Below, one piece after another: positions 1 to 3,487 of a DNA stretch of 30,144 nt. Source of the stretch: Vulcanimicrobiota bacterium (lineage in GTDB: Bacteria > Vulcanimicrobiota > Vulcanimicrobiia > Vulcanimicrobiales > Vulcanimicrobiaceae); contig PLCF01000092.1 in NCBI GenBank assembly GCA_003135555.1, positions 1-30,144 on the forward strand, read 5' to 3'. The first letter of the stretch is position 1; every line of letters begins with the position of its first letter. Position numbers and translations under genes: made by a program. The notes beneath the pieces are model-generated. The model worked only from the letters and a program-made list of their open reading frames with translations. It did not search any database and was not told the origin of the DNA.

Positions 1-1122
1 TTCTACGCCGAGCACTTCGGCGCATCACCGACCATCGTCGGCGCCATTTATTCCACGGTTGCCGTCTGCGCGCTTGTCTCGTCACCGTTCTGGGGGCGCC
101 TCAGCGATCGTATCGGGCGCAAGGGAGTGTTGATCGCTGCACAGGTCGCGGGCCTGCTCGGGTTCTCGCTTCTCGCCGCCGGAACAGCGTTGTGGACCGT
201 TTTCGTCGCCCGCGCCATCGAAGGTCTGGGGGGTGGCGGCCTGGGTGTGACGCAGGCCTACATCACCGACGTCACCACCCCGGCCAATCGCGCTCGCGCG
301 TTCGGCCTGCTCGGCGCGACCTTCGGGCTGGGCTTTTTGATCGGCCCGGCGCTGGCCGGAACGCTGGTTCGCTACGGCTACTGGGTACCGTTCGGCATAG
401 CGGCGGCGCTGCAGCTCCTCACGGTCGTCATGACGCTGATGCTGCTGCCCGAGTCCAAAGGCGCCGTGAAGACCGCGCCGACACTCGACGAGATCCGCAC
501 TTCCTTGCAATCGCCGGTGCTCGGGCGCCTGATCCTTACCCAGTTCGCGTTCGCGATCGCGTTCACGTCGTGGGTGACGGTGTTCGCGCTGTATGCGGAG
601 CGCGTCTTCGGCTTTGGCCCGGTGCAGACGTCGTACCTCTTCATCGTGTCGAGCGTGGTCGCCATCGCCGTGCAGACCCTGTTGATCGGGCCGCTGGTCG
701 ACCGGCACGGTGAAGGCCGCGTCGCGGTCGCCGGCCTCGCCCTCGCGGTGCTAGCGTATGGCGGCGTCGGCTTCGTGACGAACCTGCCGTGGCTGTTCGT
801 TTTCGTCGCGCTGTGGTCGCTCTCTGGCGCGCTCATCAGGCCGGCGCTGGGCGCGCTCGTCTCGGGCGCCGCTCCACCCGAACAGCGCGGAACCATTCTG
901 AGCGTCAACGACAGCCTCAACAGCGTCGCGTTCGTGATGGCGCCGTTCATCTCGACCACGGCGCTGCGCATAAACCCGCATGCTACCGGAGTCGTTCCCG
1001 CGGTCTTCGCCTGCGTCGCGCTCGCGATCGGCTATCGATTGCTCGCCGTGCCGCGAACGGCCGACGCGGCCGCAGCGGCCGAGGACGATCTTCGCGGCAC
1101 GCCGACCGGCGCGCCTCAGTAA
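1..1122 (+). CDS. MFS transporter, TetA/DHA1-like (5'-truncated by window edge)
   Basis: Frame is open from base 1 (FYAEHFGASPTIVGAIYS...). MFS motif A GRLSDRIGRK, motif C-like GFLIGPALAG and many hydrophobic helices; stop TAA at 1120-1122. Confidence 0.93.
   Translation, partial: FYAEHFGASPTIVGAIYSTVAVCALVSSPFWGRLSDRIGRKGVLIAAQVAGLLGFSLLAAGTALWTVFVARAIEGLGGGGLGVTQAYITDVTTPANRARAFGLLGATFGLGFLIGPALAGTLVRYGYWVPFGIAAALQLLTVVMTLMLLPESKGAVKTAPTLDEIRTSLQSPVLGRLILTQFAFAIAFTSWVTVFALYAERVFGFGPVQTSYLFIVSSVVAIAVQTLLIGPLVDRHGEGRVAVAGLALAVLAYGGVGFVTNLPWLFVFVALWSLSGALIRPALGALVSGAAPPEQRGTILSVNDSLNSVAFVMAPFISTTALRINPHATGVVPAVFACVALAIGYRLLAVPRTADAAAAAEDDLRGTPTGAPQ
1096..1115 (-). promoter_or_regulatory. Bacterial SECIS-like stem-loop
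   Basis: Minus-strand GGCGCGCC-GGUC-GGCGUGCC: 8-bp stem (one G-U) starting 12 nt after the UGA, with the loop 20 nt after it. GGUC matches the apical-loop core of the E. coli fdhF SECIS. Confidence 0.78.
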
Positions 1123-1376
1123 ACCGTTCAACCGCGCGGCGGTGAGCCCCAGCCCGACTGCACGTACGCGCCGTCGACCACGATCGCCGGAACGGTCGGG
1201 TCGCCGCCGGTGAACGCGAACATCGCGGCGCGGTGCGCGGGGTCGTTCTGCGCGTCGTAAACCGTGTACGGGTAGGCGCGCGCGTCGAAGTGCGCCCGCG
1301 CCTGCACGCAGTAGGGACAGGTCGGCGAGATGTACATCTCGACGCGATGGCCCGGTTCGAGCGCTTCGAGGTCCAT
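1116..1376 (-). CDS. Glutaredoxin-like (CPYC) protein, probable selenoprotein with C-terminal G-U-T-V-Y-stop (UXX-star-like)
   Basis: CPYC active site and TVP cis-Pro motif (GDPTVPAIVVDG). In-frame TGA at 1128-1130 is followed by ACG GTT TAC TGA and a SECIS-like hairpin. Without Sec readthrough the CDS ends at 1128. Confidence 0.85.
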
Positions 1377-1380
1377 GCGC

Positions 1381-2649
1381 TCAGCCCGGTCCCGCGCCGC
1401 CGGCGTCGGCTTCGGCCGCCTCGATCGCCAGCGTCAGCTCACGCAGGAACGAGGACGCGTCCATCACGATGCCCAGCGTTTGGTGCGAGCCGCGGTCGGT
1501 GAGCTTGGTCACCGAGGCCGGGTTGATGTCGACGCTGACGGTCTTGCACGCCGCCGGGAGCAAATTGCCTACGGCGATCGAGTGCAAAAGCGTGCACACC
1601 ATGATCGCCATCCCGATCTCGGGGACGTGCTTGCGCATCGCACGCTGGCACTCGATCACGTCGGTGATGACGTCGGGGACGGGCCCGTCGTCACGGATCG
1701 ACCCGCACAGCACGACCGGAATGTCTTTGCGATAGGCCTCGTACATCACGCCCGCGGTCAGCATCCCACGCTCGATGGCGTTGCGGATCCCGCCCACGGC
1801 ACGCAGCCGGTTCACCGTGCGCAAGTGGTGAACGTGGCCTTCTTCGGCTGGGAAGGCGTCCTCGAGGTTGACGCCCAGCGAGGTCCCGAAAAATTGGGCT
1901 TCCATGTCGTGCACGGCAAGCGCGTTGCCCGCATAGAGCGCGGTGATGTAGCCGTCGCGGATCAGGTCGGCGAGATACGGTCCCGCGCCGGTGTGGATGA
2001 TCGCGGGCCCGCCGACGAACAAGATGCGCTTGCCCGACGCGCGCACCGCCAACAGCTCGCGCGCCAGCTCGCCGAGCAGCGCGTGGCGCGGTTTCTCGCT
2101 CGATACTGCGCTGGCCATGAACTCGAACACCGCTTTGCGACGCTCGCGCTGCGGCATCGCCACCTTCACGCCTTCGTGTCCGACGACGATCGCTTCACCG
2201 GCCTTCACGTCCGAAGGCGGAACGGTGATCGCGCCACCGTCGTCGATGCGGATCGCGCAGTCCATCTCCGGGAAGGCGACCGGCATCCACACTCCCCCGA
2301 TGCGCACTTCGGTCAGGTAGTTCGTCGTGGCGTAGAACTCGTCGGGGAGCACGCCGTCGGCCGGCGCCGGCTCGGTCGAGATGTCGCCTTCGTCGACGAC
2401 CTCGGCGCCGGATTCGCGCAGCCTGTCGATGAGGTCGTCGAGGTACGCCTTGTCGGCGGCTTCGATCGCCAGGCGGGCGTAGGACGCATCGAGCTTGGTC
2501 CGGCCCGAGTCGAACTCTTCGATCACGTACGCGGCGCGCTCGTGGTCGGTGAGGATCCCCAGCACGCGGTTGAAGATGCCCGAGTCGATGATGTGACCGC
2601 GCAGCTCGATCCGGCGGACGACCGTCGGGGACGGCGAAGCGGAGCTCAT
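1381..2649 (-). CDS. TIGR00300-family protein (ornithine cyclodeaminase-like; LOR/SDH conserved region, ArgZ/AgrE C-terminal-like)
   Basis: Family motifs ELRGHIIDSG, APADGVLPDEFYATTN, EMDCAI, FEFMASAVSSEKP, GGPAIIHTG, GNALAVHDME, GSIRDDGP, LLHSIAVGNLLP, VDINPASVTKLTDRGS. Start placed at ATG 2649. Confidence 0.88.
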   Translation of the reverse strand: MSSASPSPTVVRRIELRGHIIDSGIFNRVLGILTDHERAAYVIEEFDSGRTKLDASYARLAIEAADKAYLDDLIDRLRESGAEVVDEGDISTEPAPADGVLPDEFYATTNYLTEVRIGGVWMPVAFPEMDCAIRIDDGGAITVPPSDVKAGEAIVVGHEGVKVAMPQRERRKAVFEFMASAVSSEKPRHALLGELARELLAVRASGKRILFVGGPAIIHTGAGPYLADLIRDGYITALYAGNALAVHDMEAQFFGTSLGVNLEDAFPAEEGHVHHLRTVNRLRAVGGIRNAIERGMLTAGVMYEAYRKDIPVVLCGSIRDDGPVPDVITDVIECQRAMRKHVPEIGMAIMVCTLLHSIAVGNLLPAACKTVSVDINPASVTKLTDRGSHQTLGIVMDASSFLRELTLAIEAAEADAGGAGPG

Positions 2650-3487
2650 GGGGCTCGTGTTCGTACCGACTCCGCTCGGCAACCTCCGCGACGTCACGTT
2701 GCGCGCCATCGACGTGCTGCGCGACGCCTCGCTCGTCGTCGCCGAAGACTCCCGCGTCACGCGCCGGATCCTGAGCGCCCTGGAGATCGGCGGGAAAGAG
2801 ATCTGGACCTATCACGACCACAACGCGCACGCGACGACGCCCTCGATCCTCGAGCGCGCGCGCTCCGAGACGGTCGCGGTGGTGACCGACGCCGGGACGC
2901 CGGGGATCAGCGATCCGGGCTCGGCGCTCATCGCAGCCGCCCGTGAGGCCGGAGTCGCGGTCGAGGTCTTGCCGGGGCCGGCGGCCTTCGTCTGCGCCGC
3001 CGTGCTCTCGGGGTTCGACCTGCGCCGCTTCGCCTTCGCCGGCTTTCCGCCGCGGGCCGGCGCGGCGCGGCGCGCGGCGCTGCGCGCGAGCCTTGCAACC
3101 ACGACGGTGTGGTACGAAGCGCCGCACCGCATCCTCGCCTGCTTAGCCGACCTCGCGGCGGTCGCTCCGGATCGGCGCGTATTCCTGGTGCGTGAGCTGT
3201 CCAAACTCTACGAGCAACAGGTCTTGGGCACCGCGGCGGAGATCGCCGGCGCGCTCGAAGTGCCGGTGCGCGGGGAGATCGCGTTCGTCGTCGAGGGCGC
3301 CCCAGACGCCACGCCGGCCTCGGCGCCGCCGCAAGCGGACGTCGACGCCGCGATCGACGCGCTGGTTGCCCAGGGGCTCACCACGTCGGCGATCGCCAAG
3401 CGGCTCGCCGAAGCAGGTCACGGCGAGCGCCGTCACCTCTACACGCGCGTCGGCGACCGGCGCACAGGCCGCGACGAACCGGGGTGA
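2648..3487 (+). CDS. rsmI: 16S rRNA (cytidine1402-2'-O)-methyltransferase
   Basis: PTPLGNLRDVTLRA, AEDSRVT, DAGTPGISDPG, YEAPHRI, RELSKLYE, RGEI motifs. Confidence 0.95.
   Translation: MGLVFVPTPLGNLRDVTLRAIDVLRDASLVVAEDSRVTRRILSALEIGGKEIWTYHDHNAHATTPSILERARSETVAVVTDAGTPGISDPGSALIAAAREAGVAVEVLPGPAAFVCAAVLSGFDLRRFAFAGFPPRAGAARRAALRASLATTTVWYEAPHRILACLADLAAVAPDRRVFLVRELSKLYEQQVLGTAAEIAGALEVPVRGEIAFVVEGAPDATPASAPPQADVDAAIDALVAQGLTTSAIAKRLAEAGHGERRHLYTRVGDRRTGRDEPG

Follow-up and report, generated by a model that had tools for sequence, protein, structure and literature searches.

Introduction

The selenocysteine insertion sequence (SECIS) of Escherichia coli fdhF has a GGUC apical loop, and mammalian thioredoxin reductase ends in a Gly-Cys-Sec-Gly tail in which the partner Cys is adjacent to the selenocysteine (Sec, U), with the SECIS in the 3′ untranslated region. 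Here we describe a glutaredoxin-like gene on the minus strand of a 30,144-nucleotide stretch of DNA from a Vulcanimicrobiota bacterium (contig PLCF01000092.1, assembly GCA_003135555.1; the whole stretch is hereafter called the window). The gene very probably encodes a selenoprotein, with Sec close to the C terminus and a SECIS hairpin behind the true stop codon.

Small glutaredoxin-like selenoproteins of this general type are already catalogued. The review PMC13188914 lists UXX-star families 1 and 2 and a HUGP/GUXX-star fusion, crediting family 2 and the fusion to Haft and Tolstoy 2025 and family 1 to its reference 61; Zhang and Gladyshev 2008 are also credited there for UXX-star families. The window protein belongs to the same superfamily as UXX-star families 1–3 and the fusion (NF041114, NF041211, NF047338 and NF045501) and shares their C-terminal Sec, while scoring 40.0, 28.4, 28.1 and 34.7 on the four models against cut-offs of 72, 100, 97 and 325, respectively. 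Unlike family 1, which has a second Sec in its active site (UxxT), it keeps a cysteine there, Cys20; where family 2 has the motif GxGU (PMC13188914), it reads RGU; and it lacks the partner of the fusion. The clostridial UxxC selenoprotein glutaredoxin likewise combines the glutaredoxin fold with Sec, but there Sec replaces the first active-site Cys (PMC13188914), whereas the window protein pairs an intact CPYC site with a Sec in the C-terminal tail.

A glutaredoxin-like gene with an in-frame TGA

The glutaredoxin-like open reading frame (ORF) starts at ATG 1376-1374, and its first 82 codons (1131..1376, minus strand) are the extent given by ORF callers and databases; in the ORF list of the window it is an 82-residue frame closed at the first TGA. 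On the minus strand, CCG CGC GGT is followed by this TGA (1128..1130), by the three codons ACG GTT TAC, encoding Thr-Val-Tyr (1119..1127), by a second TGA (1116..1118), which we take as the true stop, and then by a hairpin (1096..1115) made up of a 5′ arm, GGCGCGCC (1115-1108), a GGUC loop (1107-1104) and a 3′ arm, GGCGTGCC (1103-1096). The stem has 8 bp, and the 4-nt loop begins 20 nt after the first UGA.

Reading the first TGA as Sec yields an 86-residue protein with a CPYC site at residues 20–23 (codons at 1308..1319, minus strand; Cys20 TGT, Cys23 TGC) and Sec at residue 83. The Cys20 codon is TGT, hence there is no Sec at the first active-site position. The protein matches the Pfam Glutaredoxin domain PF00462 at 55.8 bits (cut-off 22.9), and its N terminus, MDLE.., is conserved among orthologs. 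A first-pass annotation of the window had described the order of these elements, the second stop and the 8-bp GGUC hairpin 20 nt after the first UGA, all of which are exact on the minus strand; its proposal of an 86-residue protein with CPYC and a near-C-terminal Sec is supported by the comparisons that follow. We are highly confident that this is a selenoprotein gene whose product has a glutaredoxin fold, CPYC at residues 20–23 and Sec83 followed by Thr-Val-Tyr; that selenium is actually inserted at residue 83 is what we infer from sequence.

Conservation of the TGA, the tail and the final stop

Two overlapping sets of relatives were compared. Among 41 related genomes, 13, the window's own included, carry an ortholog at 66–100% identity. 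A scan of species-representative genomes confirmed 177 relatives, the best 80 of which (hereafter the 80 loci) come nearly all from metagenome-assembled genomes of Eremiobacterota / Vulcanimicrobiota / WPS-2, with a few odd automatic labels. Together the two sets comprise 93 sequences and 82 distinct 60-mers.

All 13 orthologs have TGA as their first stop, behind ...PPRG or ..PLRG, and so do 80/80 loci. The stop that finally closes the frame varies, being TGA in 48, TAA in 20 and TAG in 12 of the 80 loci, and TGA in 8, TAG in 4 and TAA in 1 of the 13 relatives. Between the two stops the amino acids are kept. The tail is Thr-Val-His in 10 and Thr-Val-Tyr in 3 of the 13 relatives, with synonymous variation, and across the 80 loci it is TVH (52), TIH (15), TV (7), TVY (4), SVH (1) or TVP (1). 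A His is thus present in 68/80 loci; the window itself has Tyr. The first tail codon is ACG in 57, ACC in 22 and AGC in 1 of these loci, and the second is GTC (31), GTT (23), GTG (9), GTA (2), ATT (8) or ATC (7), so that variation is nearly confined to third codon positions. Because the residues are kept despite these third-position changes, the three-codon tail is, on sequence grounds, coding.

In an alignment of 25 sequences, the Sec column aligns with Cys in all five Cys-form homologs; one of these (L029) is from an unpublished genome, G036, and the pairing of Cys with Sec stands without it, on the remaining four. Seven columns are invariant: Y15, C20, D45, V62, P63, G75 and U/C83. Cys23 is not among them, being Thr in 4 of the 5 Cys forms. 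The first-pass annotation had looked to homologs for TGA or Cys at this position as against TAA or TAG, and for a conserved short tail with a covarying hairpin behind it; the codon and the tail are as it anticipated, and the hairpin is too.

A covarying hairpin behind the final stop

A hairpin with a GGUC-containing loop is found in 80 of the 82 distinct sequences, with stems of 4–11 bp and the loop starting 17–23 nt after the UGA (18 nt in 43). Its closing triplets covary: GCC/GGC occurs in 53 sequences, ACC/GGT in 9, CCC/GGG in 7 and TCC/GGA in 4, plus single cases. Over 8 pairs in the 13 relatives, pairing holds in 95.8% of cells, and both partners have changed in 4 of the pairs; the covariation score was reached by none of 500 shuffles, and slid controls were 20–53% paired.

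Judged on the window sequence alone, a chance origin of the hairpin is equivocal. The isolated 20-nt hairpin folds at −15.6 kcal/mol (z = −3.37) and was matched by 1 of 200 shuffles. Across the genome, 21 hairpins combine a CC-GGTC-GG apex with a stem of 6 bp or longer. It is the comparative evidence, not single-sequence folding, that places the hairpin beyond chance.

Like the fdhF SECIS, the hairpin follows shortly after the UGA and has G and U in a small apical loop; unlike it, the hairpin is wholly 3′ untranslated rather than coding, with no bulged nucleotide evident. The bacterial SECIS (bSECIS) model specifies a loop of 3–9 nt, a stem of 4–16 bp, a G in the first two loop positions and a spacing of 16–37 nt (PMC13188914), and was applied here with a minimum free energy of at most −7.5 kcal/mol. 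With a loop of 4 nt, a stem of 8 bp, a spacing of 20 nt and −15.6 kcal/mol, the window hairpin lies within these ranges. Bacterial SECIS elements are described as residing in coding regions (PMC13188914), and the window hairpin lies wholly behind the true stop codon.

Selenocysteine machinery and other selenoprotein genes

The genome to which the window belongs is about 84% complete, with 68% GC. It encodes a tRNA-Sec (73.5 bits, anticodon tca), selA (418.7 bits), a selB winged-helix domain adjoining selA, and selD. The four components selA, selB, selC and selD, whose presence the first-pass annotation had treated as decisive, are therefore all accounted for. SelB was found in 38 of the 41 relatives searched.

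Two of the genome's other genes carry in-frame TGA codons of their own. selD (L041, G000:C98:19906-20829, minus strand) reads ...SACAG-TGA-ASKVG and has two candidate hairpins, one with a UCU loop about 15 nt and one with a GUC loop about 33 nt after the UGA, neither of which we assign as the SECIS. A formate dehydrogenase alpha-type gene (L126, G000:C59, about 207-1600, minus strand), found by family search, reads ...QQARV-TGA-HGPTVV and is followed by an 8-bp hairpin whose GUU loop starts 19 nt after the UGA; the same loop occurs at one exceptional glutaredoxin locus, L086. A genome-wide scan for TGA codons followed at 15–25 nt by a hairpin with a GGTC loop returned 111 candidates, which we set aside as mostly noise from long open frames at 68% GC.

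Relationship to the Uxx-star family

The best NCBIfam match of the window protein is NF041212, the Uxx-star glutaredoxin-like (seleno)protein, in keeping with the pointer to a UXX-star type in the first-pass annotation. The score of 58.3 bits falls below the cut-off of 66, and the alignment ends at profile position 66 of 70; seven other sequences of the Eremiobacterota branch score 52.0–60.7 bits, all seven below the cut-off. The window protein shares with NF041212 a small glutaredoxin fold, an N-terminal CxxC/T, a Sec or Cys a few residues from the C terminus and a SECIS behind the stop. It differs in its sub-cut-off score and in having three residues after Sec, not two: its tail reads U-T-V-Y-stop, and exactly two residues (U-T-V-stop) follow Sec in only 7/80 loci. 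Relatives that pass the hidden Markov model (HMM) also carry three or four residues after U, so the name Uxx-star is looser than the family itself.

Two further groups occur in the same phylum. In group B (7 loci) the C terminus reads ...VGFGG[GA]-TGA-x-[IV]-H(-D)-stop, and the four sequences scored reach 89–99 bits, above the NF041212 cut-off; compared with its ...VGFGGG-U, the window protein has a three-residue insertion before Sec, the SPP in GWGSPPRG-U. The Cys group (6 loci) has a CPxT site and a C terminus of the form ...G[RL][GS]-C-Y-[VI]..., and the three sequences scored reach 72–75 bits, also above the cut-off.

Beyond the phylum, a sister clade from soil metagenomes (..GWGNPPRG, 80 loci of its own) has TGA at the first stop in 80/80. 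Its tail is TVHD in 72, TIHD in 6 and SVHD in 2, with His in 80/80, and its final stop is TAG in 63, TAA in 14 and TGA in 3. The hairpin is different, CCGGC-CGUGC-GCCGG, with compensatory changes of its own; loops in the sister clades are CGUGN, as against GGUC in the window SECIS. Acidobacterial-type sister sequences score 72.7–73.3 bits on NF041212, above the cut-off. One of them, HEX6717839.1 (Pyrinomonadaceae), which is named Uxx-star by the Prokaryotic Genome Annotation Pipeline (PGAP), scores 72.7 bits and is a 73-residue entry cut at the TGA, ending ...SGWGNPPRG; it belongs to a cluster whose members end in ...SGWG[ND]PPRG. In loci from the same class and from acidobacteria-like soil contigs (L025-L028, L031, L032, L039 and L132-L211), the U-[TS]-[VI]-H(-D) tail is kept and the hairpin loop is CGUG plus one base. 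With the same tail and a different hairpin in the sister clade, the G-U-T-V-H motif has been kept across two phyla while the SECIS turned over.

A profile search of 1.84 billion representatives returned 418 proteins at E values up to 1e-10, many of which stop right at the Sec column and many of which have Cys there. Within P0123-P0272, a crude regular-expression count, uncorrected for relatedness and with some misassigned motifs, gave CxxC in 23 and CxxT/S in 10 of the members that stop at the Sec column, and CxxT/S in 25 and CxxC in 5 of those with Cys at that column. We place the window protein among the catalogued Uxx-star glutaredoxin-like selenoproteins, as a divergent Eremiobacterota branch that is sub-threshold on the current model and has a three-residue tail.

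Predicted structure

We used AlphaFold with the 25-sequence alignment, Cys standing in for Sec, and obtained a model with a mean predicted local distance difference test (pLDDT) score of 95.8 and a predicted template modelling (pTM) score of 0.87. DSSP assigns strands at residues 12–16, 37–41, 64–67 and 70–74 and helices at 21–32 and 46–56, with no helix after residue 74. The top solved structures matched by Foldseek are glutaredoxins, and sequence matches to solved glutaredoxins stop at residue 72, before the tail in which Sec might have been compared with the extra Cys of the classical GGC motif. The first-pass annotation had pictured Sec on a flexible arm. This part of its proposal did not hold in the model (again with Cys for Sec), which predicts an ordered tail, with a mean pLDDT of 96 over residues 81–86 and beta bridges at 76, 81 and 83–84. 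With no helix after residue 74 and an ordered tail, the model suggests that the Sec tail replaces the usual last glutaredoxin helix. Classical dithiol glutaredoxins such as E. coli Grx3 differ in this respect, as the predicted window protein is without their C-terminal helix after the last strand.

Proposed mechanism

By analogy with the known bacterial pathway, a ribosome reaching the UGA at 1130-1128 would hold the hairpin, 12 nt downstream, at its mRNA entrance, where the GGUC loop would recruit SelB carrying guanosine triphosphate (GTP) and Sec-tRNA(Sec). Sec would then be inserted, three further codons read and translation terminated at the second stop. Termination there would make the SECIS 3′ untranslated over its whole length, immediately behind the stop.

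The protein is probably a thiol/selenol oxidoreductase. The first-pass annotation had suggested a possible intramolecular redox relay. Conservation suggests that Cys20 and Sec83 form a redox pair, which would be joined in a selenenylsulfide, and the crude count of CxxC and CxxT/S motifs hints that the C-terminal residue may be the resolving partner; Cys23 may serve as an extra resolving thiol, and the conserved Thr-Val-His/Tyr tail may position or tune the selenol. The arrangement resembles mammalian thioredoxin reductase in that Sec lies on a C-terminal tail near the end, beside a redox-active dithiol domain. It differs in that the folds are unrelated, the SECIS of the reductase is eukaryotic and the likely partner of Sec in the window protein, Cys20, is 63 residues away.

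A broader version of this idea, which we put forward tentatively and regard as rather more doubtful than probable, is that the catalytic couple of the whole superfamily is the first active-site Cys with the C-terminal Sec or Cys, rather than the CxxC pair, and that the G-U-T-V-H(-D) tail is an ordered selenol-His module that replaces the last helix and folds back on the active site. What suggests this couple is that no other redox residue is invariant across the 25 aligned members.

Alternative explanations

Several observations weigh against the selenoprotein reading or temper the evidence for it. The genomes compared are related, and counts taken over them overstate the independent support. 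Two of the 82 distinct sequences depart from the hairpin pattern, L086 having a GUU-loop hairpin in place of GGUC and L102 a mismatched stem with no clean GGUC hairpin. The 61-nt context of the window hairpin has no folding advantage over shuffles (z = 0.21; 117 of 200 fold equally well), and an Rfam search of positions 1000–1250 gave chance matches only (E ≥ 0.41), none of them to a SECIS family. In two of the 13 gene-carrying genomes, G009 (91% complete) and G016 (89% complete), no SelB was found. One homolog, P0157, reads ...TRG-G-LVHD, with Gly at the Sec position, which may reflect a TGA-to-GGA change or a sequencing error. Finally, the structural model was computed with Cys in place of Sec.

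The main functional rival accepts that Sec is inserted and makes it chiefly a metal or metalloid ligand, acting alongside the tail His/Tyr and the thiols of CPYC, instead of the redox partner of Cys20. PMC13188914 mentions such a role of Sec and the tail His for the Uxx-star family, and the strong conservation of that His, in 68/80 loci and throughout the sister clade, would suit it. Yet the window has Tyr, the third tail residue is absent in 7/80 loci, and the conserved neighbours of the gene in the 80 related loci are rsmI-like and metG, with no gene for metal or arsenic resistance among them. Cys20 and U/C83, moreover, stay invariant in sequences that have lost Cys23, a pattern in keeping with a redox couple of two residues. 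We judge the ligand role unlikely, less so than either of the remaining alternatives.

Far less probable, and strongly disfavoured by the comparisons, is that the first TGA is a true stop and the hairpin downstream a transcription terminator or mRNA-stabilising element. The hairpin does stand directly behind the annotated stop, where all the database entries seen come to an end. A scan for promoters and terminators, however, gave 0 sites, and a run of at least four T within the 14 nt that begin at a fixed offset beyond the loop occurs in only 1/80 loci; the hairpin is, by its sequence, not terminator-like. A true stop would also be expected to vary, yet it is TGA at all 80 loci while the next stop varies, and in the sister clade TGA occupies the first stop in 80/80 and the final stop in 3/80. 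Synonymous changes leave the amino acids of the three intervening codons intact, the final stop is in frame with them, and homologs have Cys aligned with the TGA.

Read-through of the TGA as Trp, Cys or Gly, by an altered code or leaky termination, would likewise preserve a coding tail, but it is the least credible reading of all: TGA is otherwise a stop in the window, where the upstream gene ends in it, and it terminates neighbouring genes and 48/80 of these glutaredoxin genes themselves, so the code is not reassigned. The genome also has a complete set of Sec machinery and two selenoprotein genes of classical type, and a conserved, covarying hairpin at SECIS distance would have no role in simple read-through.

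Genomic neighbourhood

The selenoprotein gene lies between two genes that are not its usual neighbours. Converging on it is a major facilitator superfamily (MFS) transporter gene (127..1122, plus strand; TAA stop at 1120-1122), whose last nine codons and TAA overlap, on the other strand, both the Sec tail and the entire SECIS hairpin (window 1096-1122). An MFS neighbour occurs in only 14/80 related loci, so this overlap cannot account for the conservation of the tail and hairpin. Upstream on the same strand, an ArgZ-like / LOR-SDH-type gene (1381..2760, minus strand) ends in an ordinary TGA stop, with 4 nt between its end and the glutaredoxin ATG. It sits between the glutaredoxin gene and the otherwise conserved rsmI-like gene and metG; as it is found upstream in only 17/80 related loci, it resembles an insertion in the closest relatives.

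The conserved neighbours are rsmI-like (73/80 related loci) and metG (56/80). Apart from this housekeeping synteny, the neighbourhood gives no hint of function.

Annotation and implications

As the first-pass annotation had expected, standard annotation truncates the protein. We listed the best 120 database homologs and read the sequences of 28: all 28 stop at the TGA, usually in ...PPRG and sometimes in the variants PPKG, PPAG or PARG. Named entries among the 120 are glutaredoxin, glutaredoxin 3, GST N-terminal domain-containing protein and hypothetical protein. Since all 28 entries end at the TGA, they lack the residue likeliest to carry the chemistry. Full-text literature searches found no paper linking selenoprotein with Eremiobacterota, and selenocysteine with WPS-2 gave only an irrelevant paper.

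The family type is already catalogued, and the picture of Sec decoding is unchanged. What the analysis offers is the correction of a systematic annotation error, in a branch of Eremiobacterota that the curated NCBIfam model falls short of reaching, together with at least 80 naturally occurring cases in which a bacterial SECIS sits entirely beyond the stop codon. Eremiobacterota (WPS-2), a soil phylum that is for the most part uncultured, gains a widespread selenoprotein. If the proposals made here are true, the hairpin would be a natural bacterial SECIS acting entirely from the 3′ untranslated region, the tail would be a minimal bacterial analogue of the Sec tail of thioredoxin reductase, and the Eremiobacterota branch would be a housekeeping selenoprotein found throughout the phylum, in synteny with rsmI and metG and overlooked by present models and annotation.

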